From Promethearchaeota archaeon (GTDB taxonomy: Archaea > Asgardarchaeota > Lokiarchaeia > Sigyniarchaeales > SOKP01): a stretch of DNA of 64,000 nucleotides. Below, one piece after another: positions 25,643 to 43,685 of this stretch. The stretch lies in NCBI GenBank assembly GCA_019058445.1, contig JAHPZA010000006.1, forward strand, positions 1-64,000. Direction: 5' to 3'. Every line of letters begins with the position of its first letter. Position 1 is the first letter of the stretch. The notes below the pieces were generated by a model. It had not been told where the DNA came from, searched no databases, and was given only the letters and a program-made list of their open reading frames with translations. The position numbers and the translations under genes are program-made.

Positions 25643-25720
25643 AAAATCTAACTTAAGTACTTTTTTATTGATATTATTAGAAAAATATCCTCATAATATT
25701 TCGAGATTTATAAAATTTCG

Positions 25721-25737
25721 TGAAAGAGATGTTTCAC
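25721..25737 (+). repeat. attL core TGAAAGAGATGTTTCAC
   Basis: Identical to 43355-43371. Confidence 0.93.
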
Positions 25738-25764
25738 TATAAGATTAGGGATCGAATCGATACC

Positions 25765-25773
25765 TTTAAATAG
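25765..25773 (+). promoter_or_regulatory. TATA-like box TTTAAATAG of the integrase operon
   Basis: About 50 bp upstream of first viral ORF; same 9-mer at 28394 and 32377. Confidence 0.5.
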
Positions 25774-25825
25774 TTTCTTCTACAGTCATCAGTAACAAGA
25801 AAATTATGGAGATGAGAAGATAAAA

Positions 25826-26038
25826 ATGAAAATTTCCGAAGAAATGAAGTATAGGAATAAAATAAGAGAAATGAAAAACTTCTTAAAGCATTTAAATCAA
25901 TTACCCAATTATCCTAATGAACAGAGCAACATAACAGAAATAATGAATGGCTTCGGACATGTTGAGCTAAACGATTTGTTTGATACTTTAGAAGCTTTTA
26001 AAAATAAAATTGAATTTTACGATTTTCGAGGCGATTAA
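25826..26038 (+). CDS. Viral hypothetical protein
   Basis: 70-aa ORF starting the integrase operon. Confidence 0.6.
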   Translation: MKISEEMKYRNKIREMKNFLKHLNQLPNYPNEQSNITEIMNGFGHVELNDLFDTLEAFKNKIEFYDFRGD

Positions 26039-26042
26039 ACAA

Positions 26043-26180
26043 ATGGAAAAACCAAAATACGATAAGATTAAAACGCAAGATATACATTATATTAATGAAC
26101 TTAGACATAAAGAGTTTTTAATCGAAAATCGCTTAGTTAAAGAAGAAATAAAAGAAATGTTAATAGAGGTGATCCAATAA
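26043..26180 (+). CDS. Small viral protein (45 aa, not in ORF track)
   Basis: MEKPKYDKIK...LIEVIQ-stop fills the gap between neighbouring ORFs. Confidence 0.55.
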   Translation: MEKPKYDKIKTQDIHYINELRHKEFLIENRLVKEEIKEMLIEVIQ

Positions 26181-26669
26181 ATGACTAAATTAACAGAAGA
26201 TATACATCTAAGATTTACTGAAACGGAAAAACAAGATATAGTTAAAATGGCGGAAGAAACTAATATGAAAATTACAGAATTTTGTAGAAATGCTATTTTT
26301 AACCATATTAGGAGAATTGAAAATCCCGAATTATTTAAAGTGAAAAGTTCAATTAATTCCGCAGATCTTAATGAAATTATTTCCGAAGTTAAGGAAACAT
26401 CCGATATTTCAAATAGAATATTAGCAAAAACCAATTTAATGGAAATTATTGATAAAAAGCTTGATATAATTCATAAATATATAGTAGGCCCGTCAATAAG
26501 CACTAATAGGGATTTAATAACGGATTTGTTTAAAACTCATAAGACTTTATCTCTAAAGCAAATAATAGAGAAATTAGATTTAGATCCCGAATTGACAACC
26601 GATTTAGTTAAAATAATGCATAAAGAAGGAACATTAAAAACAAATTCTAGGGGGAGATACTATAAATGA
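26181..26669 (+). CDS. DNA-binding protein: N-terminal RHH plus C-terminal winged helix
   Basis: IHLRFTETEK..ITEFCRNAI (RHH-like); LSLKQII..MHKEGTL..GRY (wHTH-like). Confidence 0.65.
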   Translation: MTKLTEDIHLRFTETEKQDIVKMAEETNMKITEFCRNAIFNHIRRIENPELFKVKSSINSADLNEIISEVKETSDISNRILAKTNLMEIIDKKLDIIHKYIVGPSISTNRDLITDLFKTHKTLSLKQIIEKLDLDPELTTDLVKIMHKEGTLKTNSRGRYYK

Positions 26670-27571
26670 GTAATATAACAGATTTTACAAACAAGGAAAT
26701 AATTACTAAATATCTTAATCATTATAGACACTCAAAACAATCCCAAAACATGCGAAAAAGCTCATTAAACTATTTTTTTAGCGAAGATTACTTCGGTTAT
26801 GAAGGAGATATTAAAGATATTTCAAAATCCGATTTGTTTGATTATCATGACTACTTAAACCATAAAGAAGATATTAGTTTAACAACTAAGGAAAACAAAT
26901 GGCGAATATTAACGAGTTTTATACAATGGATTATGGAGTATTACGATGGTTTTTTAACTATTATTCCGTCAAAAACAGTTAGTTGGAAGCCTAATCATAA
27001 ACAAGCGAATTCAAACAAAAACGTTGTTCTTACTAAGGAAGAGATAAAAAAGATATGGAATTATTTAGAGCTAAATAACTTTAAATATTATTTAATCTTT
27101 AGGGTTTTTTCCGAAACGGGAGCACGAAAAAGTGAAATCATAGATGCTAAATATGACGATGTCAATATAGAAAAACGCTATATTAAAACTACTGGGAAAA
27201 AAGGAACTAAGATCTATTATATTTCAAAAGAACTGGCGGAATTATTGGAAATTCATATTAAAGAGCGAAAACCTCGAAATCCCAAACCTAAAAATCTATT
27301 TGTAACTAATCGTGGGAATAAATACAGAAGCAGGGCTTTTAACCTATATATACAAAAGCATATTAAAAACATCGGAATTGATAAACACGTTAGTTGTCAT
27401 ACTTTTAGAAGATCTCTAAATACAGAGCGAAAGAAAATGGGATGTAGTAATGAAGACAGAAAAATTCTAATTGGTCACGCAGTTCAAGATGTTAATATAA
27501 ACTCCTATGTGAAATTGAACTACAAGGATTTTATTAAAATGTTTGATAAATGGAATCCATATAAATTTTAA
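26666..27571 (+). CDS. Tyrosine recombinase / integrase
   Basis: TGARKSE, GKK, HTFRR, IGH, SY catalytic residues; stop/start overlap with upstream ORF. Confidence 0.95.
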   Translation: MSNITDFTNKEIITKYLNHYRHSKQSQNMRKSSLNYFFSEDYFGYEGDIKDISKSDLFDYHDYLNHKEDISLTTKENKWRILTSFIQWIMEYYDGFLTIIPSKTVSWKPNHKQANSNKNVVLTKEEIKKIWNYLELNNFKYYLIFRVFSETGARKSEIIDAKYDDVNIEKRYIKTTGKKGTKIYYISKELAELLEIHIKERKPRNPKPKNLFVTNRGNKYRSRAFNLYIQKHIKNIGIDKHVSCHTFRRSLNTERKKMGCSNEDRKILIGHAVQDVNINSYVKLNYKDFIKMFDKWNPYKF

Positions 27572-27910
27572 TAATTTTTTTACCCTATTTTTATACTATT
27601 TTATTAAATATTTTCCTGATTTTTATATTTTTGTCATTATTTTTAGCTTCTCGATGTATTCTATGAAGAGCTTAAGCGATATTTTTTTTCCATTTTTCTC
27701 CATTTCGATTTAAACTATCTTAAATGGAGATGATAAGATATTTTCTAGCGAAAAAGCGACATGTTTATCCGTATATTTCGCTTGATTCCTCTTATCCTGT
27801 GGGGAGATGTGGTTAATTTTTTGCGGAAAAGTTAAAATTACGTTATGTTTGATCGTACATATCCGTGAGGAGATATGTACAGGCGTACATATCGATAATA
27901 AACCTAATAG

Positions 27911-28205
27911 AGTCGCAGAATCTGCAACCCTAAAAAAAGATTCTAAACCCAAAGTCGACAAGGGAAAGTAAAGTAATATTTGATCCCAATCAATTTACTT
28001 TCTTGATTGCTTCTGTGTCTATTTTAGGTTTGACAGATTCTGTCTCTCCTAAACTCCAACTTGAGTATGTGCCTTTACTGTTGACTCCGACACCCCGAAT
28101 TTCTTAGCTGTCGCTTTAGTAAAGCGTTCAGCGGGTTTATCTACTTTCTTGATTGCTTCCTTGTCGATTTTAGGTTTATTTTCCCGTTTCGCAGATTCTG
28201 CGACT
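27911..28205. pseudogene. Rearranged fragments of a ParB-like HTH gene with three palindromic boxes
   Basis: VAESA..KPK(I/V)D cassette in three copies (one +, two -); FTKATAKKFGVSESTV HTH-like; 15-bp inverted repeat 27911-27925/28191-28205. Confidence 0.45.
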
Positions 28206-28393
28206 TGGGAAAATATAAAAATTTTTTGAGTGACAAAAATCTTTTCGCGTGACATATTTATCTCGCGTGACATTAACCAAATTGCAGAATAGTTTGAGGA
28301 AAAAAGCGAAATCGAAACATTTTTATAGTTACTTTGACTAGTATATGGTGAAGTATTACTAAATAATAAAAAGTAAAAAAAACCATGCAAGGT

Positions 28394-28402
28394 TTTAAAT
28401 AG
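28394..28402 (+). promoter_or_regulatory. TATA-like box of the RHH-TFB operon
   Basis: GCAAGGT-TTTAAATAG about 40 bp before ATG 28443. Confidence 0.55.
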
Positions 28403-28442
28403 ACTTTTTTTTTTATTTTTACTAGGTAAAAATTAGTAAAAA

Positions 28443-28574
28443 ATGAAATTATTGAATTTTAAAGTAACGGAAAAAATATACAAACAACTAAAAGAGTATA
28501 TAGAAAAACGTGGGCAAACCAAATCCGCAATTCTAAGAGAAGCTTTATTCGAATACTTAGAGAAGAATAGATAA
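28443..28574 (+). CDS. CopG-like ribbon-helix-helix protein (43 aa, not in ORF track)
   Basis: MKLLNFKVTEKIYKQLKEYIEKRGQTKSAILREALFEYL. Confidence 0.8.
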   Translation: MKLLNFKVTEKIYKQLKEYIEKRGQTKSAILREALFEYLEKNR

Positions 28575-28580
28575 GCTTCA

Positions 28581-29390
28581 ATGCATTGCGACGAATGTTC
28601 GGGCGCTATTAATTATATCGGAATCTGTGAAGAATGCGGATTAATTGATAACGAAATCCATAAAGAAAGTATGCTAGATTTAGATCCTATGAGTTTTAAT
28701 AAGAATGGTGAGCTTAAGAAAGATCATGGAATTTTTTATAAATCTAATATTCCGTGTATAGCAGTTACAACAAAAGTAAGTAGAAAAAACGCTAACAATT
28801 CCGATTTATTTAGAGCTTTAAAATGGGATGGAAATTACAAATGGGATATACAAAAATTCATGATTTTTAAAAAAGAAATTGAGTATATTTGCGAAAATTT
28901 AAACATAAAAAACGATTTGAAGTTTACAATCTTAGATATGGGAAAACGGATTTTGGGAAATCTAATCTTATCTGGGAAAAGGATTGAAGATATGGCGGGA
29001 GCAATTGTTTATTTGACGGCTAGAATTGAAGAATTGCCTATATTGATTGATGATCTTAAAGATTTAGAATACAAAAATACTTATCGTTATTACGTTTTCT
29101 TAGTTAAAAAAATGGGATATTTTAACATATTAAAAAACCCAAATCTGAGAAGATTTTTATATCGGTTTATAGTAGAATTAGAATTAAGTGAAAAAGTTGC
29201 GTTAGAATGTCTGAAAACGCTATTAAAATTAAAGCAAATTTCCGCGAAAATAAATATCAAATCTGCAAGTGTTATTTACTATGTTTGTAAAAAAAACGGA
29301 ATTAATATAACTCAAAATAAGATTTCCGAAGTTTGTAAATGTAGTGTGGTGCAAATGAGGGAAATAATAAAAATATTGAATAAAAAATGA
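28581..29390 (+). CDS. Virus-encoded TFB/TFIIB homologue
   Basis: CDEC..CEECG Zn ribbon; GKRIEDMAGAIVYLTAR and ASVIYYVC..ITQNKISEVCKCSVVQMR cyclin repeats. Confidence 0.85.
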   Translation: MHCDECSGAINYIGICEECGLIDNEIHKESMLDLDPMSFNKNGELKKDHGIFYKSNIPCIAVTTKVSRKNANNSDLFRALKWDGNYKWDIQKFMIFKKEIEYICENLNIKNDLKFTILDMGKRILGNLILSGKRIEDMAGAIVYLTARIEELPILIDDLKDLEYKNTYRYYVFLVKKMGYFNILKNPNLRRFLYRFIVELELSEKVALECLKTLLKLKQISAKINIKSASVIYYVCKKNGINITQNKISEVCKCSVVQMREIIKILNKK

Positions 29391-29539
29391 ATCCAAAAAA
29401 AATAAGAGAATGCCCAGTGTGCGGTTCAAAACACTTCTTCATAGCTGGATCATTAAATACGTACGGTTGGTTTACCGATATCATAATTTACTGTTATTCT
29501 TGTAAGAAATATCGCGGAATAATAGATACAGAAGGTTAA
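29387..29539 (+). CDS. Small Zn-finger protein (50 aa, not in ORF track)
   Basis: CPVC...CYSC; ATGA overlap with TFB stop. Confidence 0.7.
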   Translation: MNPKKIRECPVCGSKHFFIAGSLNTYGWFTDIIIYCYSCKKYRGIIDTEG

Positions 29540-29553
29540 GTATTTTTACAAAA

Positions 29554-29811
29554 ATGAAAGAATTGAATAAAGTTAAACTTATAGAAAAAATTGAGATGGG
29601 AATAGGCGTGAAGAATGGGGATATAGAACACTGTTTAAACGACGATAATATGTTTGATATAACAAGTAGAATTAAGGAAAATGAACATAATTGTAATCCC
29701 CTTTATATTACTATTCCTTTCTCTTTTCTCCTAAAGCGTTTTAACCTTAGAAGGAAAAATCGAGAATTAAAAATAGGTTTAGGGTTAAAAGTAACATATA
29801 AAGAGGATTAA
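29554..29811 (+). CDS. Viral hypothetical protein
   Basis: Co-oriented ORF in tightly packed operon. Confidence 0.6.
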   Translation: MKELNKVKLIEKIEMGIGVKNGDIEHCLNDDNMFDITSRIKENEHNCNPLYITIPFSFLLKRFNLRRKNRELKIGLGLKVTYKED

Positions 29812-29835
29812 ACATCCTCTATTTTTTTTTCAAAA

Positions 29836-30150
29836 ATGCCAGAGTTAAAAGAAATGCCAGAAATTATAAGATCTCAGAGATTAATAACCTATGATAATAA
29901 AAAAGTATGGGCGACGGAAAGTGTTTGTATGGATGTTAAATTTAATGGAGTGGAAAATTATTTCACGATAGATAATGCCCAGTCAGAAGCTACTAAGAAA
30001 ATCAATGGGATTTTGGATGAGCTAGATAAATTGATTGAGAAGATATATTTCGCGGGAAAATTTTATGGTGCAAATATGTTAAATTGCAAGGTTAAGATCG
30101 CCAAAATTAAAGAATTGTTGCCTGTTACGATAAAAGATGACGGAAGATAA
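29836..30150 (+). CDS. Viral hypothetical protein
   Basis: Co-oriented ORF in operon. Confidence 0.6.
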   Translation: MPELKEMPEIIRSQRLITYDNKKVWATESVCMDVKFNGVENYFTIDNAQSEATKKINGILDELDKLIEKIYFAGKFYGANMLNCKVKIAKIKELLPVTIKDDGR

Positions 30151-30571
30151 ATCAACATTAGAAATTACTAAATTTCCGCAGACTAAAAAGAATGATAGTA
30201 TAGATGCATTAGGAATGGAAATAAAACAATTGAAGGGAAATTTGATGGAAATTGAAAATTTGAAAAACGATTTAAAAATCATAAAACGATTATTCTATTT
30301 GATGATCTCATATAAAGAATTCAGAAATAACGAATTTCTTTATTTGATTCAAGATTTATTAATAGATAACAATGTAAGAAATGATAAAACCTACAAGAAT
30401 CATCTAATAGAAGTAAACCTAGATCAATTAAGGAAAGCAATTAAGAAGATTGAAGATTTTAAGGAGATAGAAGATTTAGGACCTCATGAAGTAGGATTAA
30501 AAATTCTAAGAGAAAATGAAACCCTAAAAGATCATATTAATTGGATGATTAGGGAAAATGACGGAGATTAA
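30137..30571 (+). CDS. Viral coiled-coil hypothetical protein
   Basis: Overlaps both neighbours; heptad-like pattern. Confidence 0.6.
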   Translation: MTEDKSTLEITKFPQTKKNDSIDALGMEIKQLKGNLMEIENLKNDLKIIKRLFYLMISYKEFRNNEFLYLIQDLLIDNNVRNDKTYKNHLIEVNLDQLRKAIKKIEDFKEIEDLGPHEVGLKILRENETLKDHINWMIRENDGD

Positions 30572-30953
30572 AGATATACCTTTTGACATTGAAAATTTGA
30601 ATCTCTTAGAGTTAATTGGAGGGAAGACAGCAGATCTCTCCAGATTTTTAGGAGTGAATGGAGACATTGTTTTTATTACGTGTATCTGGGACGGGTTAAC
30701 CAATTTTTATACCCGAATAGCAGATTATGATCAAGCTTTACAAGAAAAGGAATTAACAAGAAAACAACATTTTGTTAAAATTTGGAAATTAAAGAATGAA
30801 ATGTTAAACATGTTTTCCTCAATTTGCGACACGATATCAACTGTTCCAGAGTTTAATGAAATGATTGACGACGATACAAAAAGCAGTATAAAGAAATGGC
30901 GTGAAGCGTATAAGAGCTTTATTGAAAATACAGAAAAAGTAGTTAAGGAATAA
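30558..30953 (+). CDS. Viral hypothetical protein
   Basis: Overlapping co-oriented ORF. Confidence 0.6.
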   Translation: MTEIKDIPFDIENLNLLELIGGKTADLSRFLGVNGDIVFITCIWDGLTNFYTRIADYDQALQEKELTRKQHFVKIWKLKNEMLNMFSSICDTISTVPEFNEMIDDDTKSSIKKWREAYKSFIENTEKVVKE

Positions 30954-30991
30954 ATTAAATTCCTTTATTTTTTTTATTGTAGTGAGAAAAA

Positions 30992-31234
30992 ATGATGCAA
31001 AATATAAATTTAGAAAAAGATTTTAAGGGAGTTTATTATGAGGCATCTTCTAATAATACTTCTTATAATGACGCGATAAATTCCCTTATTTCTAAAATAA
31101 TGCAAACACTTAAAAACTCTATTGATCCTAAAGAGAAAAAAGCATCGATTGGATTGTTTGGGAATATAATAACAACCTTATCTATAAAGGATCAAGATTT
31201 TAAAGAAATAGAAATATTTGGAAGTATTAGATAA
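30992..31234 (+). CDS. Viral hypothetical protein
   Basis: Co-oriented ORF. Confidence 0.55.
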   Translation: MMQNINLEKDFKGVYYEASSNNTSYNDAINSLISKIMQTLKNSIDPKEKKASIGLFGNIITTLSIKDQDFKEIEIFGSIR

Positions 31235-31265
31235 ATAACTAAAAAAGAACGGGTAAGTGAAATTT

Positions 31266-31415
31266 ATGAAATTATGGTTTAGTGCGAATATATTGAATCG
31301 AATAAACAATATAAAACATAAGAATGAGACAGTAACGCAATTTATTAAAAGGGCTGTTGAGTATTATGTTTTGGAATGTGAACGTGAATATAATGAAAAT
31401 AAAAAAGACACCTGA
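31266..31415 (+). CDS. Small RHH-like protein (49 aa, not in ORF track)
   Basis: MKLWFS..ETVTQFIKRAVEYY. Confidence 0.55.
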   Translation: MKLWFSANILNRINNIKHKNETVTQFIKRAVEYYVLECEREYNENKKDT

Positions 31416-31731
31416 AGAGAATTATTATAAAAAACGCACAGAGTATATCCGTTTATTCATAATTGAGGATAAAAAAATAAATGAAATATCGGAAATTACG
31501 GGAGATTCAAAATCGAGGGCAAGGTATTTAATTTATAGTAAATGGGATTTAAAGAAAAAAGGAAATCCATTATATTTGATGTATAAGAATAGGAGAGAGG
31601 AAACGGATAAACGGAAAATTGAGAGATTACTTGAAGATGGGAAAACAAGAAAGGAGATTTATTCGAAGTTTAAAGAAAATTACAAAACTTTTTTGTCTTA
31701 TTGTAAGCGTTTAGGAGTTAGGGGAGACTGA
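31393..31731 (+). CDS. Basic double-HTH-like protein adjoining origin-like repeats
   Basis: KKINEISEITGDSKSRARY and GKTRKEIY..YCKRLGV; ATG at 31393. Confidence 0.55.
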   Translation: MKIKKTPEENYYKKRTEYIRLFIIEDKKINEISEITGDSKSRARYLIYSKWDLKKKGNPLYLMYKNRREETDKRKIERLLEDGKTRKEIYSKFKENYKTFLSYCKRLGVRGD

Positions 31732-32210
31732 TTTTTGTCACATCGCGATCTCTTAGGAAATTGAAGAGACTGATTTTTGTCACATCATTTTCACTTTTTT
31801 CCTAAAACTAAAAATGGTTTTTTTGATCGAATTTGGTATTTAGGAGTTTTGAAGTCTTCATAAAATAATGAAGAGGAAAAATCGTCACATGATTTTTGCG
31901 GGAAAAATGTGGGAAAAAGTGGGGAAATGAAATATTTGACGAGATGGGGTTGTCTAAACAAAAATTATGAAAATTTAGTTTCTAGGAAAAAATGAAACTT
32001 ATAATATATAATATATAACTTTCATATTTATCTAGAAACTAAAATTATAAGTAGAGGCGTTTTAAAGCTATTTTAGAATTTTGGGTAAGGTTTACGTGGG
32101 AAAAATGTGGGAAAAAGTGGGTTAGTTTTCGGTTTTTAGTGAAATGAATGTGACATTTTTCAGTCTTCTGTATTCTGTTAAATCTCTAAGCGATCTAATA
32201 GCCAAATTTA
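31724..32210. repeat. Origin-like region: iteron pair, G-rich direct repeats, central AT-rich palindrome
   Basis: 21-bp repeats 31724-31744/31766-31786; 24-bp repeats 31900-31923/32098-32121; inverted arms 31974-31985/32032-32043. Confidence 0.7.
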
Positions 32211-32376
32211 AATTGAAAAAATGGTTTAATTTTTAAAATCCATAAATGATGGGAAGAACGGGTTTAGGGTATTTTTTTGGACACTTCGACTTATTTTAAT
32301 CATAAAAAAGCCTGTTTTCTCCCATCATTTTATTATTTTTCCGTAATGAGATGACTGAAAAGCGGGATTGGTAAGT

Positions 32377-32385
32377 TTTAAATAG
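32377..32385 (+). promoter_or_regulatory. TATA-like box of putative late transcript
   Basis: TTTAAATAG about 22 bp before the structured segment at 32407. Confidence 0.55.
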
Positions 32386-32406
32386 TCATTTTTTTTGGTT
32401 GTAATT

Positions 32407-32649
32407 GACAAATTTATGACTGAGATTGATCGCGTTAAGAGGGAATTCATACTTATTTCAAAAATGAATTCAAGATCGAAAGATCTTTTTGAAGAATATA
32501 TTTAAAGAGGCATGTTGACGTACAGTCACTTGGAAATTGAAATATCTTTCGAGAGATCTTTTGTTTGTTCGAATTCTACTTTTTTTATCACCTGTCATAA
32601 ATTGTCTTGTTCCATGTGAACAAAATCGGGACGATCTCATCAATCGTCC
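32407..32649 (+). ncRNA. Candidate structured RNA / long 5' leader
   Basis: Nested complementary segments 32407-32420/32594-32606 and 32479-32499/32542-32561 (G-U type mismatches) plus two small hairpins. Confidence 0.5.
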
Positions 32650-32656
32650 TTAAAAA

Positions 32657-33151
32657 ATGTTTTCCAGAGTAAAAGAAACGCGAAAATCGGAAGTAATCGC
32701 CAGAGAAGGGCAACCAAGAGTAGATGTGGACAGACCTGAAGTTATTGGCGGGCCTGTGGCGAGTTCTTGGATAAGTAGCTTGTATTATGATTTAGAAAAT
32801 GAAGTAGCTACTATGAATACATTCGATTTAGGAGAAAAAGGAATAGATTATCGCAGTTATGACTTTCCAGAATTTCCTCCCGCAGAATTTGATGATTGGT
32901 GGCTTGCAATGAGTAAAGGCACATTTTATCATGAAAGGGTTAAGAATCTGGGATATCTAAAGCGTAGAATGTTATTGAAAAGGGTTTTGGCTAAAGTAAA
33001 GGCTAGAAAGTATAGAAGGCGAGAAAATAGGAAGTTTAAGTATTATTCCGACGCGTTTAAAGAAGGATTGCCAGTTAAACAAAAAGGAACGGGAAAAAGA
33101 GCAATTCCGTATTCGAAAAGGAAATTAAAGCAAAAAGGGTTATTTGAGTAA
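32657..33151 (+). CDS. KTSC-domain protein with basic C-terminal tail
   Basis: VASSWISSLYYD...YDFPEFPPAEFDDWWLAMSKGTFYHERVK follows KTSC pattern. Confidence 0.75.
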   Translation: MFSRVKETRKSEVIAREGQPRVDVDRPEVIGGPVASSWISSLYYDLENEVATMNTFDLGEKGIDYRSYDFPEFPPAEFDDWWLAMSKGTFYHERVKNLGYLKRRMLLKRVLAKVKARKYRRRENRKFKYYSDAFKEGLPVKQKGTGKRAIPYSKRKLKQKGLFE

Positions 33152-33161
33152 AAAGTTAGAG

Positions 33162-33332
33162 CTTAGCCTTTTTCCGCAAGCATTCGAATTCAGGAAGCCA
33201 CGTTAACCATTTCCGTAAACCCATGAATTACGGTAATAGAACGCCCACGTTTAGCGTTCAAGAAAATTGAAAATAAATGAAAATTTTTCATGGGTTTTCT
33301 AAGATAAGAGAAGAGAAGCTAAGAACGGAAAT
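33162..33332. ncRNA. Second candidate structured element
   Basis: AAACCCATGAA/TTCATGGGTTT, GAACGC/GCGTTC, ATTTCCGT/ACGGAAAT pairings. Confidence 0.4.
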
Positions 33333-33538
33333 TATAACTATGTGAACTTCGCAAAATGATGATTTCACGCATATCTCATAGAATACGAGAAGATAACCCA
33401 GAAATAGCAAAAATAAAGAATTGAGTAAAAGAATCGTTTAAATCGTGTTTAAACGTTATTAGAAGGTTAGGTTACTTTTAATAGAAATTAACGGTTACAA
33501 ACGATTTAAAAATATAGGTATTAAGAGGGTATAAAAAT

Positions 33539-33884: not shown

Positions 33885-34014
33885 AAAACTTGATCTGTGA
33901 GAGATTGGTTCTTACGGTTTTACCTTTTAGATCACCAACCTGCAAAATGCCACTAGAAGCGTTCTACTCCCCATTTATGAAAATCAACATAAACGGAAAC
34001 ATCCAAAAATAAAT

Positions 34015-35505: not shown

Positions 35506-35507
35506 AA

Positions 35508-35915
35508 ATGAAATTAAAAAATATTATTAATAAAATTAAGACTGGATATAAACGCTTTAGAGAGTACTTCTATAAAGGAGAAGTGGTGTTTATGACTAAT
35601 GATAAAGCCCATTTAGAGGCAATTTATACAAGTTTATCCGTTTTAGGAATAGATATTAAATATATAGGTAATAATGAATATATGTTTAAAATCTCCGCAA
35701 AAAAGGAAAAACATTATAAAAAGCTTGTAAATACAATTCTGGAAGATAAGGAGAGTTTAAAAGAGAAGTCTATGCGTTTATTTGATAAAGAACTTAAAAT
35801 AAAAGAATTAAATGAAAAATTAGCTTTTCTTAAAGGATTATTTGAATCAGAAAAAGCTATTATTTTTGAAGAGAATTTCAATGAAGATATGAAGGCTAAA
35901 TTAGATGCAATATAA
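35508..35915 (+). CDS. Viral coiled-coil protein between TerL and portal
   Basis: Co-oriented, K/E-rich helix. Confidence 0.6.
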   Translation: MKLKNIINKIKTGYKRFREYFYKGEVVFMTNDKAHLEAIYTSLSVLGIDIKYIGNNEYMFKISAKKEKHYKKLVNTILEDKESLKEKSMRLFDKELKIKELNEKLAFLKGLFESEKAIIFEENFNEDMKAKLDAI

Positions 35916-37077
35916 AACAGTAAATAGAGGCAGTTTTGATCGGTATTATGAAAACCAATATGCACCTAGTTTACTAAAAGATTATTATACTTCCGTAAAT
36001 GACGCAGAAACTAGGGAAAAGAGATCGGGGATTGATCCTTTAGCTTCAGCATTAACTTTACGTGTCGGAAAGCTTTTAACCATGAATCCCCCTAAATTCT
36101 TGGATGAGAATAAAGAAGAGATCAAGAAAATAAGAGAAGAATGGGTTAAAAATGATTATGATAGCGTTTTCCGTGAAGCGATAATAAGTACACGTACTCA
36201 TGGGTTTTGCGTGACAGAAAAACTGAAAAATTCTTTCGCGGGGAAAAACTTTTTAGTACATAATCTGGCGAATGGAATTATACGTGTAAATTATGAAGAT
36301 CGTTTGAATATAAAGAGTTATGATATTCTCCCAAAAATGGAAGAAGGCGAGAGGATTTCGAGTTATGCTATTCCAAAACAACGTGAATTAATGGGAAAAA
36401 ATGCTTTTCACTATGAAATAGGAAGGAAAAAATATAACCAACAAGGCGAGAGTTCTTTAAAACCAATTTGGGCCCAATTAGTACGCGCAAATGAGATAAT
36501 TGACAGTATGGCGGAATATGACTCGCGTATCGGTAAGGGCTGGCTATATGTTAAAGTAGATCCCGCATTATATAATAAAGATATTTCAAAACTTAATACT
36601 GTCGTGCGAAAAATGAATCGTCGACGTTTTATGATTCTAAAAAGTACAAAAGAATCGCCCACGGATATTAATTTATTAACAACGACTAGCACGATTGATT
36701 TTTCTAGAGATCTAGAAACTTTAGTGGGTATTATAGCTTCACAGACTGGATTGCCTACTCGGTGGTTTCTTGGTTCACCAAAAGGATTCATTTCTTCCGC
36801 AAAAGAAGATAGATATCAAGTTTATGCAACTTTAAAAAGTATATTTGCGGAATATAAAGACTGGATTAGGGGATTTATTGAGAAATTCTATGAAAGTGGA
36901 GAAGCTATAAACAATAAGATTAAAGAAATTGAATTTGACGACGAAGGCGTTTTAGAAGAAATAGGAAGACAAATGGAAAACGGTGTAGCTTTTGATAACA
37001 ATCAAATACAAGAATCAGGTAAAACTGAGAAACAAATTAAATATTTAGCTAATAAAGAACAATTAAAGGAGAGCTAA
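35905..37077 (+). CDS. Portal protein (DUF1073-like)
   Basis: Position after TerL; GESSL and IASQTGLPTRWFLGSPKG..ED..Y resemble DUF1073 portals. Confidence 0.8.
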   Translation: MQYKTVNRGSFDRYYENQYAPSLLKDYYTSVNDAETREKRSGIDPLASALTLRVGKLLTMNPPKFLDENKEEIKKIREEWVKNDYDSVFREAIISTRTHGFCVTEKLKNSFAGKNFLVHNLANGIIRVNYEDRLNIKSYDILPKMEEGERISSYAIPKQRELMGKNAFHYEIGRKKYNQQGESSLKPIWAQLVRANEIIDSMAEYDSRIGKGWLYVKVDPALYNKDISKLNTVVRKMNRRRFMILKSTKESPTDINLLTTTSTIDFSRDLETLVGIIASQTGLPTRWFLGSPKGFISSAKEDRYQVYATLKSIFAEYKDWIRGFIEKFYESGEAINNKIKEIEFDDEGVLEEIGRQMENGVAFDNNQIQESGKTEKQIKYLANKEQLKES

Positions 37078-37079
37078 TT

Positions 37080-37409
37080 ATGGAAGAATTAATTATAGAT
37101 GTAGAAAATATTGATGGAGAGAATTTAAAAATCGAACTTCCGTTTTTTAAGCCTTATATCGTTAATAATGAAGATTTTCTTAATATGGTTAGGTATTTAA
37201 AAAAGAAATTTGATTTAAATATTCCGTCTGAAGCGAATAAAGCTTTAAAACATTGGTCAGATTTAGAAGAATCGATGGTACAAGAATCTAAAGAATTTGT
37301 ACCATATGAAAGCGTTCATTTTAAGCATCATTTTAAACTAGAAGGGCTTAAACCTTTTGATATTGAGGAGTTTTATAAATCTCATTATAAAACTACTAGA
37401 GGATGGTAA
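37080..37409 (+). CDS. Viral hypothetical protein in head module
   Basis: Between portal and protease. Confidence 0.6.
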   Translation: MEELIIDVENIDGENLKIELPFFKPYIVNNEDFLNMVRYLKKKFDLNIPSEANKALKHWSDLEESMVQESKEFVPYESVHFKHHFKLEGLKPFDIEEFYKSHYKTTRGW

Positions 37410-37410
37410 A

Positions 37411-38139
37411 ATGACTCATTTAGAGGATTACGATTATATAGGAACAGCATGCTTAGGTGACGTTAAATACGACGACGGTTTTGATAAATGGGATGATATC
37501 AAGAAAGTAATTAAAAATAAGAAAGAAATTATCATAAAACCCAATCATGAAAGTAAAGATATCGTCGGAAGGGTCAAGTTTTTTGAGCTGTGCGATAAAA
37601 ATAAAGAATTGAAAATAGGAATTAATAGAAAGGATTTATCCGTTGGTTTAGATGCTTTTAATGGAGTTTCTCCCCAATTTTTAACCAATGATAAAGGCAA
37701 AATAGTAGATATAACACATTTTGCGATTGGGAATAGTTTTAAACCGAAGTGTGATAAATCAGTATGTTATATTGAAAAAAATCGAGGTAAACAAAAGAAA
37801 ATGGATGATTTAGAAAAAAAAATTGAAGATTTAAAAGCTGAAAATAAAAAACTTAAAGCGAAGTATTTAGAACTAGAAAATAAGATGCTAGAGACTGATA
37901 ATAAAGCTTTTGAAGAATTCTTAAAAGAAAAAAACAATAATAATAAGTCTAAAGATAAGGATAAAGATGGGAGTAATCCTAAAGATAAGGATAAAGATAA
38001 AGATTTAGACTTAACACCAAATCAAGATATCGAGCAAGATATCGAGACAAAACCCAAAAATAAGTTTGAATATAAAGGATTTTTGGGAAATACAACTAAA
38101 AACACAGAAAATTTAATCGCAAAAAGAAAAATAAAATAA
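37411..38139 (+). CDS. Prohead protease-scaffold fusion
   Basis: NH..IVG, GVSPQF, THFAI protease-like motifs; coiled-coil and KD-repeat C-terminus; ATG at 37411. Confidence 0.7.
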   Translation: MTHLEDYDYIGTACLGDVKYDDGFDKWDDIKKVIKNKKEIIIKPNHESKDIVGRVKFFELCDKNKELKIGINRKDLSVGLDAFNGVSPQFLTNDKGKIVDITHFAIGNSFKPKCDKSVCYIEKNRGKQKKMDDLEKKIEDLKAENKKLKAKYLELENKMLETDNKAFEEFLKEKNNNNKSKDKDKDGSNPKDKDKDKDLDLTPNQDIEQDIETKPKNKFEYKGFLGNTTKNTENLIAKRKIK

Positions 38140-38183
38140 ACTATTGATTGAAAATTAAAAATTAAATAAAAAGGTAAACGATA

Positions 38184-38636
38184 TTGGCAAATACTAAAAT
38201 TAGTGATATTGCAAATAGTGTAAGCTTAGGTATAAATCCAACAGAGAGCGTTAAAGCCTCAGAGGCTTCCTTAAAAGCAGGTATGGGCGTCTATCATTAT
38301 AACGAGACGGGCGTAAAAGCAATAGAGGGAAGTGCAGCATTGGTTAGCGGTTTTGCGGGAGTTTTAAAAGAACATTATTATTCTGGTCTTGATGCAACAT
38401 TAACTAATGGATCAGACTATGAGCTTATCAAAAGAGGTCCATGTGCTGTGTTTATTGATGATCCAGGTAAAACTTTTGGACCAGGTGTGGAGATCTGGGT
38501 AAGTGGTGCAACTGCTGGGAGTTTTGGTTTATTAACTGATCGTGACTTTATTGCTCTTTCGGGAGCTAGCGCAGTTGGTAAAACTATCGATACTATTAAC
38601 TCAGGCGATACCGTTGCTATGGTTAATCTTTATTAA
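38184..38636 (+). CDS. Capsid decoration/cement protein
   Basis: G/A/V-rich beta protein directly before MCP. Confidence 0.65.
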   Translation: MANTKISDIANSVSLGINPTESVKASEASLKAGMGVYHYNETGVKAIEGSAALVSGFAGVLKEHYYSGLDATLTNGSDYELIKRGPCAVFIDDPGKTFGPGVEIWVSGATAGSFGLLTDRDFIALSGASAVGKTIDTINSGDTVAMVNLY

Positions 38637-38648
38637 AGGTGATTTAAG

Positions 38649-39566
38649 ATGGTAAGATTAACAAGGCAAGAACTTAAAAGTATCGATGACATCGTTAAAC
38701 GTGTTCTTCGTGAGCCTCCAATCTTAGAGGCTTTCGGCATTAGACAAGTTGCTAATGGTAAAAGAGAACATATGTTTTTAAGCGCGTCAGATATGCCCAC
38801 ATCTAATATTGGTGCAGATTTCTCTTATGATGCTAGGAACTACCCTATGAGAATCCCTACTGGAACAAAACTAACATTTATAACCTTTCCTGTTCAAATT
38901 AAAAGAACGGATATTGATGCAAGCGAAAGTGCGGGAATTGAATCTCTCGCCGTAACGGCTGAAATTGAAGCAAACGCAGCAATAATGAAGGATGTTGAGG
39001 ATGTTGTTCTTCATGGCAATAATGCTCGCGGATCTAAAGGTATGTGCAATTATGATGGTTTAAATCATTATGGTGCAGATGCTAGTAAAGCCTTAACAAC
39101 TCATGGGAGTTTTTTTACCCAGTTGGAAGGGGCTATCTCACAGGTTCGCGAAAATCATATTAAACCCGGATCAGAAGGCTACGATCTAATAATTAGTCCT
39201 GGGATTTTTCCCGAATTAAGGAATAATTGGGTTACTGGGATTTATAATGAGTATAAGCAATTTAAGGAAACCTATACTGAAGGTCCAGCTCCAGTTATCG
39301 GTAATATTATCGAGACTGACGAGATCTGCACGGACAGTAATGGGAACGCTACAGGTTGCTTCACAGATACCCAAGGTTTCATTGTCGGGAAATTAGGACA
39401 GCCAAATAATTACATCGCTGAATCGTACGAACTTCACCGCGATTTGATTCCAGGAGAATTTGAAAGTGATGTAAATTATGCGCTACGTTGGGCTGGCGGA
39501 TTTATTCCGAAAGAACCGAAGGCTTTATGCTTAGTCACTGGGTTAACGACAACCACAGCATATTAA
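38649..39566 (+). CDS. Major capsid protein, HK97 fold (encapsulin/DUF2184-like)
   Basis: 305 aa, strong SD AAGGTGA, VEDVVLHGNNARGSKGMCN, YDLIISP, C-terminal PKAL. Confidence 0.82.
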   Translation: MVRLTRQELKSIDDIVKRVLREPPILEAFGIRQVANGKREHMFLSASDMPTSNIGADFSYDARNYPMRIPTGTKLTFITFPVQIKRTDIDASESAGIESLAVTAEIEANAAIMKDVEDVVLHGNNARGSKGMCNYDGLNHYGADASKALTTHGSFFTQLEGAISQVRENHIKPGSEGYDLIISPGIFPELRNNWVTGIYNEYKQFKETYTEGPAPVIGNIIETDEICTDSNGNATGCFTDTQGFIVGKLGQPNNYIAESYELHRDLIPGEFESDVNYALRWAGGFIPKEPKALCLVTGLTTTTAY

Positions 39567-39586
39567 GTACGGCTAATTAGCTTAAA

Positions 39587-39627
39587 GATTGGAAAACGTG
39601 CGTGTTTTTCCGATCAAATTTTTTTTT
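39587..39627 (+). terminator. Hairpin plus T-run after MCP
   Basis: GATTGGAAAA...TTTTCCGATC then 9 T. Confidence 0.65.
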
Positions 39628-39654
39628 ATTTTAGAAAAATGAAAATTAAAACTT

Positions 39655-40002
39655 TTGTTGGTGATGTTAAAATTGGTGTATAGTAAATTAACGGATATAG
39701 AAAATAGGTTACCATTTGATATAAACGCAAATTCAATTCCATCGAGTAGTCAATTAACGGGCGTACAACTTCAATCAAACTTATTCATTAATGGATTTAT
39801 AGGGAGACCTTCTGGTTTAACGGAAAATACTGGAGCTTTAAGAATAATAGAGACCGATATTGCAGTAAATTATTGTATGTATTGGCATGATCCCGAATTC
39901 TCGCCTTTTTTTAGGTTTACACGCGATCAGAGGATGATTTTAGATAATTATCGTAGCGATCAATGTGTAAGATTGGGAAAATTAGGTTTTGATAGGGATT
40001 AA
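39655..40002 (+). CDS. Head-tail adaptor-like protein
   Basis: Position after MCP; YSKLTDIE..FINGFIG pattern of gp15/gp6-like adaptors. Confidence 0.55.
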   Translation: MLVMLKLVYSKLTDIENRLPFDINANSIPSSSQLTGVQLQSNLFINGFIGRPSGLTENTGALRIIETDIAVNYCMYWHDPEFSPFFRFTRDQRMILDNYRSDQCVRLGKLGFDRD

Positions 40003-40004
40003 AA

Positions 40005-40418
40005 ATGACTATCGCGGATATTAAGAGTGACGTTGTATCTCATTTAACAGATAATTGGAATACAGGCGTTTGTTCAATGCCAGAGATCCTCGAAGGAGAT
40101 CGCAAAACTAATTTGCGTGGCAACCAAATCAAATATCGGAATTCTATTAAAGTCTGGGATAATGGAATGGAGCCAGAATATGTAGATCCGCAACGCAAGA
40201 TTTGGGACGAGTATTACAACGTAAAATTAGAAATAGGATCACGCGAATCGGAAAGTAATTTAAAAAATATTTTATCCGAAACGCAACGCATTATAGGATT
40301 GACTGGGATATCGAATTACGATAACCAATTAATTTTGGGTGTAAAAAGGAAAGATTCTTCCGAAGAATATTACTCAGAATTTGATTTTATTGCAATAAAA
40401 TACAACCAATCCGTGTAA
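40005..40418 (+). CDS. Neck / tail-terminator-like protein
   Basis: 137 aa, position, VKLEIGS..LSETQRII pattern. Confidence 0.5.
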   Translation: MTIADIKSDVVSHLTDNWNTGVCSMPEILEGDRKTNLRGNQIKYRNSIKVWDNGMEPEYVDPQRKIWDEYYNVKLEIGSRESESNLKNILSETQRIIGLTGISNYDNQLILGVKRKDSSEEYYSEFDFIAIKYNQSV

Positions 40419-40637
40419 AAAAAGCAAAAATGAAGAGGTGTCCGCTACACCTCTTAAAAACAATCCATAACAATCCAAGAACGGAACGGATTAAACTAGA
40501 AAAAGATTGACGGTTTTTCTTAAAATTGCTGTTCGCAAAACAAGGAAAAAACAAAAAGAAAAGTACTAGGTTAAGGTTAAATTAATCCGTTCTTCAAAAA
40601 TGAATAAAAAAATAAATATAAACAGGTGAAATGAAAT

Positions 40638-41504
40638 ATGGCAAAAATATATGCAATTCACTTAGGGTGGGTGTTAGTAGAATCTTATAATGTAGGTGAT
40701 TTAGGTGACAACGACGGTGCGCGAGGAATTTGTAATGACGGAACATTTTTTTACGTTGTTGATTATAATGGTTCAGCAGTATACAAATATCCTTCAGATT
40801 TTAGTTCATTAACGGATTCATATGATATAGGAGCATTGGGTGACAATGATAATCCTTGGGATATTTGTTGGGATGGAACTTATTTTTATGTCACTGATTT
40901 TATAGATGCAAAAGTCTATAAATATAATTCTGACTTCAGTACATTAGAAGACACTATTGATATAGGAGCATTGGGTGGTAATGACGAACCGTATGGTATT
41001 TGTTGGGATGGAACAAACTTCTTCATTACAGATTATGGGGAAGCGTACGTTTATAAATATCCTTCAGATTTTAGTTCATTAGAAGCAAGTTATGATATTG
41101 GCGCATTAGGTGGGAATGACGCACCTATGGGAATTGATTGGGATGGATCTGATTTTTATATATCTGACTATCAAGACGCTAAGGTTTATAAATACCCTTC
41201 AGACTTCTCAGAATTAACTACAAGTTTTAATTTAGCTAACTTAGGTGATAATACGCAACCAATGTGTATGTGTTGGGATGGCACATATTATTATGTAATT
41301 GAATATAAAGATACTGTTTATAAATATGCAGGGGAAATATTAGATATAACCTCCGATGTCAGCTACTGTAAAATCATCACAGAAGTCCGCCAAGTTCCTA
41401 AAGCTATTATAAAGGTACGAAATCAACCATTTGAAGCAGATGATCTCATTCGAATTGTCGGTAATTATACATCATTCAAAAACTGTATAAGGCATGGTAG
41501 TTAA
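40638..41504 (+). CDS. Beta-propeller repeat protein, possible receptor-binding protein
   Basis: Five ~43-aa repeats YDIGALGxNDxPxGICWDGTxFY..VYKYPSDFS. Confidence 0.75.
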   Translation: MAKIYAIHLGWVLVESYNVGDLGDNDGARGICNDGTFFYVVDYNGSAVYKYPSDFSSLTDSYDIGALGDNDNPWDICWDGTYFYVTDFIDAKVYKYNSDFSTLEDTIDIGALGGNDEPYGICWDGTNFFITDYGEAYVYKYPSDFSSLEASYDIGALGGNDAPMGIDWDGSDFYISDYQDAKVYKYPSDFSELTTSFNLANLGDNTQPMCMCWDGTYYYVIEYKDTVYKYAGEILDITSDVSYCKIITEVRQVPKAIIKVRNQPFEADDLIRIVGNYTSFKNCIRHGS

Positions 41505-42183
41505 AAGAATTAGAAAAACTATTCTAAGTAAATGGGTAAATAAGCTTAACTTAAATAATATTCCAATTGAGTTTATTTATACAAACAATAATACATTTGA
41601 AAATGGTTTATGTAGTTATGATTTTAACGCAAAAAAGTATAGGATATTTATAACTCCAAATTCTGATAAAGAAACCTATATTCACGAACTAGGGCATATT
41701 TACTTCGATAAATTGACTAATGCTTTAAACTACTATCAAAAAAACCCTTTTAAGAATATTTATATTAGAAATAGCATTGAGGACGGTTTTGTTAATTATA
41801 ACCTAAGTAAATTTAATGAGTTTTATGATCTTATTAATGAAAATATAGGAAGATCAAAACCAATTAATTATTTGATCAAGAGTTTTAGTTTAAATAGACT
41901 TTTAGGTGGTTATATTTATGATTATCTTCATTGGAACTTCATATTAAAACCAAAAGATCGAAATTTACAAAAAGAAATAATCGATTATAATCTCAATATT
42001 TACCAAAAAGCTATACTCATAAGAGCAAAACAAGAAAAGATTAAATTCAATCAAAAAGACTTATTCAAATTAAGAATAATCTTAAATCAATTTCCTAAAA
42101 TTAAAGATCTTAGAGATTATAAGATCTTAAAAAAGTATGAAGATCAGGTTTTAGAAAAATTTGAAAAAATAAGAGATATTTAA
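41494..42183 (+). CDS. HExxH metallopeptidase-like protein (ImmA/IrrE-like)
   Basis: YIHELGH plus downstream IEDxxVN. Confidence 0.7.
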   Translation: MVVKRIRKTILSKWVNKLNLNNIPIEFIYTNNNTFENGLCSYDFNAKKYRIFITPNSDKETYIHELGHIYFDKLTNALNYYQKNPFKNIYIRNSIEDGFVNYNLSKFNEFYDLINENIGRSKPINYLIKSFSLNRLLGGYIYDYLHWNFILKPKDRNLQKEIIDYNLNIYQKAILIRAKQEKIKFNQKDLFKLRIILNQFPKIKDLRDYKILKKYEDQVLEKFEKIRDI

Positions 42184-42231
42184 CCAAAAGACAAAAATCC
42201 AGATATCTAAAACCTTAAGATCTTCTTTAGA

Positions 42232-42624
42232 TTAATAAGAGGGTTTAAATCCCGTTATTTCATACACTAGGGATCGATGGAGAAATCCATCTTTCTCTAA
42301 ATTATTATTTCTTTTACTAAAATCATCAAAATGCGGAATAATTGATTTTCTTTTTTTGTATTGATTAAATAAGATCTTTTTTTGAGATTTCATGAATCTA
42401 TGCTCTTTTTCTTTCACATTTTTTTGATTTTTATCAGTCAAATCAAATATATCAAGTAAGAAATATAAAGAATCCATAGATAATTCATATTTTTCCGTTT
42501 TTTCGCTTTCTCTTTTACAATATAACCAAATACTAAAAACTGGCTTACGATTTTTATGAACTAACACATATTTCCATAAATATTTACAATTTCCTTTTTT
42601 TAGTTCTTTACTTATAATAAACAT
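42232..42624 (-). CDS. Viral hypothetical protein
   Basis: 130-aa ORF convergent on peptidase. Confidence 0.55.
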   Translation of the reverse strand: MFIISKELKKGNCKYLWKYVLVHKNRKPVFSIWLYCKRESEKTEKYELSMDSLYFLLDIFDLTDKNQKNVKEKEHRFMKSQKKILFNQYKKRKSIIPHFDDFSKRNNNLEKDGFLHRSLVYEITGFKPSY

Positions 42625-42668
42625 TTTCTTTCTAATATTTTACCTGTTTTTTATCATTTTAATAAAAT

Positions 42669-42698
42669 AAAAAAATAGATGGGGATTATTCCCCATCT
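42669..42698 (-). terminator. Hairpin plus T-run on minus strand
   Basis: AGATGGGGA/TCCCCATCT stem followed by T7 on minus strand. Confidence 0.65.
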
Positions 42699-42732
42699 TA
42701 AAACGTAGCAATAAATACGTTCAATGCGCGTT

Positions 42733-42885
42733 CTAACAATATACTAACGTTACTTTATTCTTTTTAATGAATCCTAATTTTTCTAATTTGTCAATAATTA
42801 CTTCTTCCGTTTTTTCTAAGCTTCGATATAGGTTTAAGAGACGTTCTATTTCTTCTTCTTTAGATGCTTCAATCTGCTGGCTCAT
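42733..42885 (-). CDS. Small viral protein (50 aa, not in ORF track)
   Basis: MSQQIEASKEEEIERLL...; SD GGAGGTGA; ATGA overlap with upstream ORF. Confidence 0.65.
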   Translation of the reverse strand: MSQQIEASKEEEIERLLNLYRSLEKTEEVIIDKLEKLGFIKKNKVTLVYC

Positions 42886-43163
42886 TTTATCACCTCCTCT
42901 ATTATTTTTTTAATTCCGTTAATTAGAATCATGATAATAACAAATATTTGAAACCCTATAAGCAAAAATAGAATTAAATCATATATTAAACTCCCGTGAA
43001 CAACTAAGCCACAGCAATTAACAAATCCCCCTTCACCTTTTTCATATGAATTTTTTATTGAGTTACTTACTAAATGTAATGTTAAAGCGAATACTATTAC
43101 AAATATAGCTAAAATGGTATTTACAATTAATAAAAATAATAGATTTTTTACTTTTTTTTCCAT
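42882..43163 (-). CDS. Two-TM viral membrane protein
   Basis: Two hydrophobic helices; likely start MEKKVK. Confidence 0.65.
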   Translation of the reverse strand: MEKKVKNLLFLLIVNTILAIFVIVFALTLHLVSNSIKNSYEKGEGGFVNCCGLVVHGSLIYDLILFLLIGFQIFVIIMILINGIKKIIEEVIK

Positions 43164-43354
43164 TTTTATCTCCAATACACGTCATCGTCGCAAGGTTTAT
43201 AAATCTTCTGACTACAAAACGGTACAAAAGTTTATAAGATTTAACAATAATATACAATTAGATCGGAAGAGTTCTTCTCATCTCCGAGAATTAAACTAAT
43301 TTTAGTTTAGCTCTTCCGATCGCTATTAATACCTTTTCGATCCCAGATTAAAAC

Positions 43355-43371
43355 TGAAAGAGATGTTTCAC
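43355..43371 (+). repeat. attR core TGAAAGAGATGTTTCAC
   Basis: Identical to 25721-25737. Confidence 0.93.
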
Positions 43372-43462
43372 GATCTTACCGACAAAGCTTTTCAAAGTTT
43401 AAAATTTAAAGAGAATTTTTAGTTAACTTTTAAAAATTAAGAGTATAATAGAAGCTTTTTCT

Positions 43463-43669: not shown

Positions 43670-43685
43670 ATTAATCACTCAATTA

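Follow-up and report, generated by a model that had tools for sequence, protein, structure and literature searches.

The 64-kb window, that is, the whole stretch of DNA analysed here, belongs to G000, a Promethearchaeota genome of 4.6 Mb in 10 contigs that is not closed. As read from the DNA, a predicted virus genome of 17.6 kb is inserted in this window not into a tRNA gene but into a palindrome with two 11-bp arms and a 6-bp spacer (11-6-11 geometry). This site is one member of a lineage-restricted, multi-copy family of 11-6-11 palindromes that probably serve as spacer-addressed landing pads for elements carrying a ribbon-helix-helix (RHH) gene next to an integrase gene.

The provirus is bounded by an exact 17-bp direct repeat, TGAAAGAGATGTTTCAC (Table 1). 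Outside the two borders, no match to it with up to 2 mismatches was found in the window, and 0 chance copies are expected. The core is laid out as 5 + 6 + 6 around the spacer GAGATG. The left junction reads ATTTCGTGAAA-GAGATG-TTTCACTATAA, and the end of the right junction (43355-43376) reads TGAAA-GAGATG-TTTCACGATCT. Joining the two host flanks reconstructs the empty target (attB) as the 28-mer ATTTCGTGAAA-GAGATG-TTTCACGATCT, with arms matching at 9 of 11 positions and the inner 8 bp perfect; the reconstructed site of the element (attP) retains only TGAAA/TTTCA symmetry. The first-pass annotation of the window had described both sites in this way, and at the same positions we obtained the same result. 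The left arm starts 72 bp, and the repeat core 78 bp, after the stop codon of the PNP_UDP_1 phosphorylase gene.

In G003, a genome of the same genus, the exact 28-mer is intact between the orthologous PNP-family phosphorylase gene (93% identical) and rpS27e, in a 186-bp gap between ordinary genes that contains no remnant of an element. Because this uninterrupted 28-mer lies at the orthologous locus, both the insertion and its target are established: direct repeats bound the element and a relative keeps the empty site, as is expected of an attB core site. ARAGORN found no tRNA in the window, in agreement with the first-pass annotation, and no Rfam family was found in 20000-48000, which rules out a tRNA or non-coding RNA gene as the target. 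Elsewhere in G000, a near-match to the core with 1 mismatch (C7:75357), approximately 300 bp past the C-terminal-domain match of an Orc1/Cdc6 gene and probably still inside that gene, has no palindromic arms and is probably due to chance.

An intact tyrosine recombinase is encoded beside one of the two junctions. All the catalytic residues (R, K, HxxR, H and Y) are present, and the gene, which begins 929 bp after the left repeat copy, is whole. An SSV-type 'suicidal' integrase was rejected on these grounds; the open reading frame (ORF) is uninterrupted at 26666-27571 and the att core lies outside it, 929 bp upstream, so that the earlier statement that the integrase is not split holds. The protein is Xer-like over its full length, and XerA proteins are its closest matches in both structure and family. 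Among the NCBIfam models, that of archaeal XerA (NF040815) fits it best, but the score of 88.3 bits is below the equivalog cut-off of 220 bits and excludes it from the XerA orthologues. It is 29% identical to the host XerA over 140 aa and 20-23% identical in a full-length alignment. The match to Phage_integr_3 (8.5e-4) is under the cut-off. Homologues formed 114 clusters with 41-57% identity; those with an organism in the source name are all from Asgard metagenome-assembled genomes, Promethearchaeota and Lokiarchaeota among them, two are from marine-sediment metagenomes, and most are nameless. The elements headed by the pair of RHH and integrase genes are otherwise unlike one another; among them are this head-tailed-type provirus, one that encodes MCM and TFB, and one that has genes for restriction-modification and a D5-type primase.

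We propose that the provirus was inserted by conservative site-specific recombination catalysed by its own Xer-like integrase, probably with the help of the adjacent RHH protein, and that the crossover took place in or next to the spacer GAGATG of the 28-bp palindrome. If it works as XerA and other tyrosine recombinases do (PMC3646895, PMC8371274), the integrase would bind the inner GAAA/TTTC parts of the arms and cleave at the spacer borders. Strands would then be exchanged across the 6-bp overlap, for which attP and attB would have to match. The RHH protein, a candidate recombination directionality or architectural factor, would probably shape attP or set the direction of the reaction.

The first-pass annotation had suggested that the element entered the host dif or a mimic of it, and a host dif would be present once. 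The palindrome proved to be repeated. Beyond attB, G000 contains 10 copies of TCGTGAAA-N6-TTTCACGA with at most 1 mismatch in 16. Throughout the order, the motif occurs in 130 of 151 genomes, usually in 4-14 copies, and a control with the reversed pattern gave approximately 0; throughout the phylum, its occurrence centres on the archaeal family of G000 (44 of 45 genomes), with a few other lineages besides. Among perfect 7-N(3..10)-7 palindromes in G000, CGTGAAA-N6-TTTCACG shows the strongest enrichment (6 observed vs 0.009 expected). In this genome the 6-bp spacing is strict: 10 sites have at most 1 mismatch when the spacer is 6 bp long vs 0-1 at spacers of 4, 5, 7 or 8 bp. A second perfect palindrome enriched in G000 is AGTGTAT-N4-ATACACT (5 vs 0.013 expected).

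The consensus of the family is about W-g-W-TCGTGAAA-N6-TTTCACGA-W-c-W. A logo of half-sites (n = 96, from 48 sites) showed conservation of the arm over approximately 11 bp, W-g-W-TCGTGAAA, and the inner bases are GAAA-N6-TTTC in all 48 sites. Spacers have 52% GC vs 17.5% in the flanks, and A is almost never the first spacer base. Only one of 72 distinct sites is not intergenic. The two arms deviate independently, with no compensatory changes, which favours the binding of a protein to duplex DNA over the formation of a hairpin; judged from sequence alone, the arms point to a dimeric protein as the ligand. The attB could form an 8-bp stem (-6.3 kcal/mol) as RNA or single-stranded DNA, but a hairpin is disfavoured by the uncompensated variation of the arms and by half-sites of the same sequence. 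The half-site GTGAAA/TTTCAC equals the consensus hexamer of bacterial parS, except that it is everted and its halves are 6 bp apart; a coincidence is the probable explanation.

Within one genome, the spacer differs at every site, with the sole exception of CTCAGC, found twice in G051. Between species and even genera, certain spacers recur (CTCAGC, GACTTG, GCACAC, TCATCG, TGAGTG and TTGGCG). Orthologous sites agree in the whole 22-mer but differ in the DNA next to it, where indels reach up to the site; in most cases synteny is confined to one flank. A 1.35-kb block absent from G003 starts at the C4 site of G000, and the site at C6:903535 lies inside a 5.7-kb island unique to G000. The genes near the sites are mostly ordinary metabolic genes that are functionally unrelated to one another. 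Ends of miniature inverted-repeat transposable elements or insertion sequences were rejected, since the flanks of the 10 G000 sites share no similarity. A bias towards convergent genes, hinted at by these 10 sites, was gone in the set of 72 (35 tandem, 18 convergent, 15 divergent).

Two further observations concern individual copies. The full palindromes with spacer CTCAGC in G051 lie on two contigs, at C7:3306 (L116) and C39:7658 (L117); one shares synteny with other genomes in its left flank and the other in its right flank, indicating an insertion bracketed by two complete CTCAGC sites. No integrase of this family was found in G051. MFS_2 transporter genes stand directly beside three copies of the palindrome (G000:C6:902071-904917, G000:C10:22737-24291 and L152 in G089), a pairing that could be due to chance or to a mobile module.

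At least six independent elements share one arrangement: at the junction beside the RHH and integrase module, a host arm TCGTGAAA is followed by the spacer and a weak element arm. Both ends were read for the element in the window (spacer GAGATG) and found for the 16.4-kb element G108:C22 (GAAACG), in which a 14-bp repeat gives the attB TCGTAAAA-GAAACG-TTTCACGA and the att layout is the same as in the provirus. The four other elements match at attL. In G064 (CAATGG), attL lies 620 bp upstream of the integrase gene, and in L138 (GGATGG), L136 (CAAGCC) and L140 (TTTAGA) it precedes the RHH gene by approximately 100 bp. The spacers GGATGG and CAAGCC also occur in uninterrupted sites of other genomes. 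All the repeats that could be read from both ends are centred on the 6-bp spacer, which identifies the palindromes as core-type sites of tyrosine recombinases used as attB. Because the attP spacer of each element matches one member of the family, the family probably acts as a set of landing pads addressed by their spacers.

Several results weigh against so general a role. Four of the six elements are known from attL only, and a recognisable palindrome was present within 1.5 kb in only about one quarter of 30 integrase loci examined. One subfamily of the integrases uses a different, non-palindromic repeat, GACTCTGAATTGACCTTTCC. Also, the arms of attP are weak, so that the full 11-bp arm is no more than a putative requirement of the integrase. 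Considering the subfamily with another repeat and the fraction of loci with a palindrome, we regard palindrome targeting as a trait of part of the integrase family. When exact repeats were sought around eleven other integrase loci, only G108:C22 and the subfamily with the different att had convincing borders. Several public contigs stop approximately 140 bp upstream of the RHH gene, and in L136 and L140 the att junction is at most 45 bp from the contig end. Fragments of integrase genes were found within approximately 1.2 kb of sites in G070 and G021 and, in G095, within one 2.6-kb locus.

The subfamily with the different repeat has an integrase approximately 51% identical to that of the provirus. 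Its elements are flanked by ACTCTGAATTGACCTTTCC, as seen in L093 (G115:C129, 1-20096) and L098 (G127:C168). In G115, three copies of ACTCTGAATTGACCTTTCC bound two tandem elements of approximately 12.4 and 7.6 kb.

It is possible, though short of probable, that the whole family consists of sites for the host XerA. The copy linked to xerA, with an AT-rich spacer, would then be the true dif, the unique spacers would stop recombination between copies, and elements with Xer-like integrases would exploit these sites as others do tRNA genes. The host protein encoded on contig C9 is a true XerA (239.1 bits, cut-off 220), and its best match of solved structure is the XerA of P. abyssi. In 43 genomes of the archaeal family, we scanned the 5-kb region preceding xerA (189 kb in total) for palindromes with at most 2 mismatches. 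A palindrome was found 1.1-4.0 kb from xerA in 15 of the 43, always on the upstream side, compared to approximately 0.5 expected from the site density. These copies have related AT-rich spacers (TTTATG, CTTATG, CTTCTG, CTTTTG, TCTATG, TCTTTG and others) in five genera. Where a genome has only one site, it is the xerA-proximal copy (at -3.7 kb in G013, at -7.7 kb in G058 and, degenerate, at -1.4 kb in G005). In Haloferax, a dif-like element upstream of the xerA operon has been reported (PMC11840125). Moreover, genomes that lack integrases of this family altogether still keep perfect arms (16/16), suggesting that the host imposes a constraint.

Other results speak against XerA as the common ligand. 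The xerA-linked copies are orthologous and represent few independent events; G000 and most genomes of genus g11 have no copy near xerA; and G005 has an intact XerA without an intact site. Conversely, three f17 genomes, G179 (91% complete), G169 and G188, have 2-4 sites and no XerA match at 1e-25. Some f17 sites share identical spacers with sites of the archaeal family of G000. The sites lie in species-specific, variable DNA, and the TAA/TTA hallmark is missing. A combined version is offered tentatively and is in our judgement doubtful: the family may be a genome-wide set of up to approximately 14 XerA-type sites insulated by their unique spacers, in which the xerA-linked copy is dif and the others are docking sites for the entry and exit of viruses, plasmid-like elements and small gene modules that have Xer-derived integrases.

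The xerA locus itself lies outside the window (G000:C9:114213-117531), where xerA, at 114213-115151, is in an apparent operon with a thioredoxin-reductase-like gene (trxR). An Orc1/Cdc6 homologue is located approximately 2 kb downstream of xerA, and the cumulative GC skew of the contig has its maximum nearby, at approximately 140 kb; xerA may thus adjoin a replication origin. The orthologue in G003 (L142, G003:C132:4519-5448), 87% identical, contained two in-frame TAA codons in the search output and may be a pseudogene or reflect an assembly error.

It is rather unlikely that the palindromes have no host function and are footprints or junctions of mobile elements (attL, attR, remnants of attP, or modules carrying a site) kept uniform by repeated integration and excision. 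Such an origin is consistent with the position of sites at or inside blocks of variable presence: the TFS-like and PNP genes with the attB, a GNAT block at C4:115923, the MFS island at C6:903535, and the site together with C and D upstream of xerA. It is also consistent with the pattern of one syntenic and one variable flank, with the toxin-antitoxin genes and integrase fragments beside some copies, and with the two CTCAGC copies of G051, whose outer flanks are syntenic with other genomes. Identical 22-mers, including the spacer, occur in different archaeal families, f17 among them, which suggests horizontal spread. However, the attP arms are weak in all six elements, and decay would not leave both arms of a site perfect. 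Sites far exceed integrases (11 vs 1 in G000), the empty site of G003 is free of any element remnant in its 186-bp gap, and the neighbours are mostly ordinary metabolic genes.

A role of the palindromes as operators of a dimeric host DNA-binding protein, either a transcription factor or a chromatin or boundary protein, is improbable. The virus would then use one of them because tyrosine integrases favour dyad-symmetric DNA. The symmetric half-sites, the fixed spacing, the conserved arms and the intergenic location would all fit, and some copies are found in divergent promoter regions and approximately 300 bp upstream of trxR-xerA. But the genes beside the sites (for an epimerase, a GNAT acetyltransferase, MFS transporters, a kinase, a thioesterase and TPR proteins) form no coherent regulon, and a regulon was rejected for their lack of functional relation. 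In addition, one quarter of the sites are flanked by convergent genes, a gene 3' end is at a median distance of 55 bp, and the spacers are GC-rich and conserved between species, which a factor reading only the arms would not need.

Compared to a host dif, the attB has the expected imperfect inverted repeat with 11-bp arms and a 6-bp spacer, but it differs in copy number, locus and core. The provirus-free relatives G001, G005, G006 and G009, two of which are 98-99% complete, have the PCNA-p110-S27e genes and lack the palindrome at this locus. The TFS-like gene, the PNP gene and the palindrome constitute a block of approximately 1.3 kb (24435-25742 vs L102-L105) that is present, within the genus, only in G000 and G003. 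Since four congeners lack this block, the landing site itself lies in accessory DNA. According to PMC11840125, the core TAA-N6-8-TTA is what described archaeal dif sites conserve best; it is absent from the palindrome, in which the inner bases are AAA/TTT. The cumulative GC skew is weak on all 10 contigs, with the local signal dominated by the provirus, and there are three Orc1/Cdc6 genes. The target as the functional, single XerA dif of the host, entered in the way integrative mobile elements exploiting Xer (IMEX) enter bacterial dif, is extremely improbable: the nearly symmetric 11-6-11 geometry, the XerA-like integrase and the bona fide XerA of the host (239 bits) would allow it, but ten more copies, four congeners without the site, its association with accessory genes, the missing TAA/TTA core and an integrase brought by the element speak against it, and copy number and non-conservation contradict it; the GC skew is too weak, in too fragmented an assembly, to place the terminus. 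Of the earlier suggestion, the part naming a mimic remains plausible, also in view of the xerA-linked copy in relatives, and the part naming the host dif itself does not stand. By its sequence features, the landing site is classed as a dif-like paralogue or mimic and not as the unique dimer-resolution site of the chromosome.

Another candidate for dif, the copy with spacer TCATYG, was also rejected. It is single in 55 of 56 carrier genomes and common to 7 genera; however, it is present in only 15 of 39 high-quality genomes and its flanks are not syntenic. In G070 this copy adjoins an integrase fragment and a TumE-type toxin-antitoxin pair.

The genes flanking the provirus in the window, encoding PCNA, ribosomal proteins S27e and L44e and a TFS-like protein, are archaeal. 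The features of the provirus and its borders are listed in Table 1. Two parts of the provirus have internal repeats. An ORF without a Pfam match (40638-41504) contains five tandem 135-bp (45-aa) repeats at 40686-41312 that are 65-73% identical, and its product resembles structural or receptor-binding proteins of the repeat or propeller type. The non-coding stretch 31893-32121, which could serve as a viral origin or in regulation, has a direct repeat of 31 bp, rich in GGGAAAAA (31893/32091, 90% identical), as well as an inverted repeat of 33 nt (31971-32003 / 32014-32046).

Table 1. Features of the provirus, its attachment sites and the adjoining host genes (positions in the window).
Feature	Position	Strand	Remarks
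TFS/RPB9-like zinc-ribbon gene	24435..24773	+	Pfam Zn_ribbon_TFIIS 1.1e-18
Host PNP_UDP_1 phosphorylase gene	24872..25642	+	Left neighbour of attB; Pfam 6.3e-35
attL	25715..25742	.	Host arm ATTTCGTGAAA, spacer GAGATG, element arm TTTCACTATAA
Left repeat copy TGAAAGAGATGTTTCAC	25721..25737	.	Crossover region (proposed), centred on the 6-bp spacer; exact
Provirus body, head-tailed type	25738..43354	+	~17.6 kb; strongly positive GC skew; genes almost all on +
RHH gene, NikA-like	26181..26669	+	Overlaps the integrase start; Pfam NikA-like 1.3e-09
Xer-like tyrosine integrase gene	26666..27571	+	Intact, 301 aa; PF00589 5.8e-20
Virus-encoded TFIIB/TFB homologue	28581..29390	+	Pfam TFIIB 1.2e-12
Terminase large subunit (candidate)	34015..35505	+	Terminase_6C 9.2e-4, under the Pfam cut-off
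Portal protein (candidate)	35905..37077	+	Phage_portal_3 1.4e-05, under the Pfam cut-off
HK97-fold major capsid protein (candidate)	38649..39566	+	Linocin_M18 1e-04 and Major_capside 5.4e-03, both under the cut-off
attR	43349..43376	.	Element arm TAAAACTGAAA, spacer GAGATG, host arm TTTCACGATCT
Right repeat copy TGAAAGAGATGTTTCAC	43355..43371	.	Exact direct repeat
Host ribosomal protein S27e gene	43463..43678	-	Right neighbour of attB, convergent with PNP; Pfam 3.2e-21

Little has been described of where the viruses and plasmids of Asgard archaea integrate; the sites given in the searchable literature are tRNA-adjacent or short motifs (PMC8813620, PMC11529989). We found there no earlier description of such a palindrome family or of its use as landing sites. 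A family of palindromes addressed by their spacers would give a simple rule for delimiting proviruses and plasmids in assembled Asgard metagenomes, would account for hotspots of gene gain and loss in these genomes, and would supply genetic tools for Asgard cultures with orthogonal recombination sites. Should the arms turn out to be XerA sites, the lineage would have its first proposed dif, and the family would be a case of one recombinase site expanded to a multi-site system. A spacer-insulated set of XerA-type sites, if true, would be an archaeal chromosomal counterpart of gene traffic through dif modules or integrons.

Among known systems, the palindromes resemble archaeal XerA/dif (Cortez et al. 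2010, PMC2958812; Badel et al. 2021, PMC8371274) in having two inverted arms of approximately 11 bp around a 6-bp spacer, in the near symmetry of the arms, as for a homodimeric recombinase, in their intergenic location and, in many relatives, in a copy near xerA, as in Haloferax (PMC11840125). Archaeal dif, however, is single-copy, conserved in position and characterised by TAA-N6-8-TTA, whereas here there are up to 14 copies per genome that differ between congeners and have AAA/TTT inside, and the occupied copy is absent in four congeners. The attB cores of tyrosine integrases, including the dyad stem-loops of tRNA genes (PMC8371274), share with the provirus site an intact element integrase beside attL, a short block of identity between attP and attB, a crossover inside a dyad-symmetric site and a neighbouring gene for a small DNA-binding protein. 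In contrast to those cores, the target here is a repeated intergenic palindrome and not a gene, and related integrases address its members by the spacer.

IMEX such as CTX-phi, TLC-phi and the gonococcal island integrate at bacterial dif (PMC5357621; 10.1101/2021.09.09.459576), and these too are mobile elements in a Xer-type 11-6-11 site. IMEX have no recombinase of their own and borrow the host XerCD at the one true dif, whereas the provirus has its own integrase and occupies a paralogous site; membership in IMEX was rejected because of the intact integrase and because the target is not the single dif. In Acinetobacter, plasmids carry pdif modules: small gene modules, toxin-antitoxin pairs included, are bordered by numerous dif-like sites whose arms are conserved and whose 6-bp spacers vary. 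These sites have asymmetric XerC/XerD arms, and the modules are thought to be moved by the host XerCD. The Asgard sites differ from pdif in being chromosomal, symmetric and archaeal, and in being used by element-encoded integrases.

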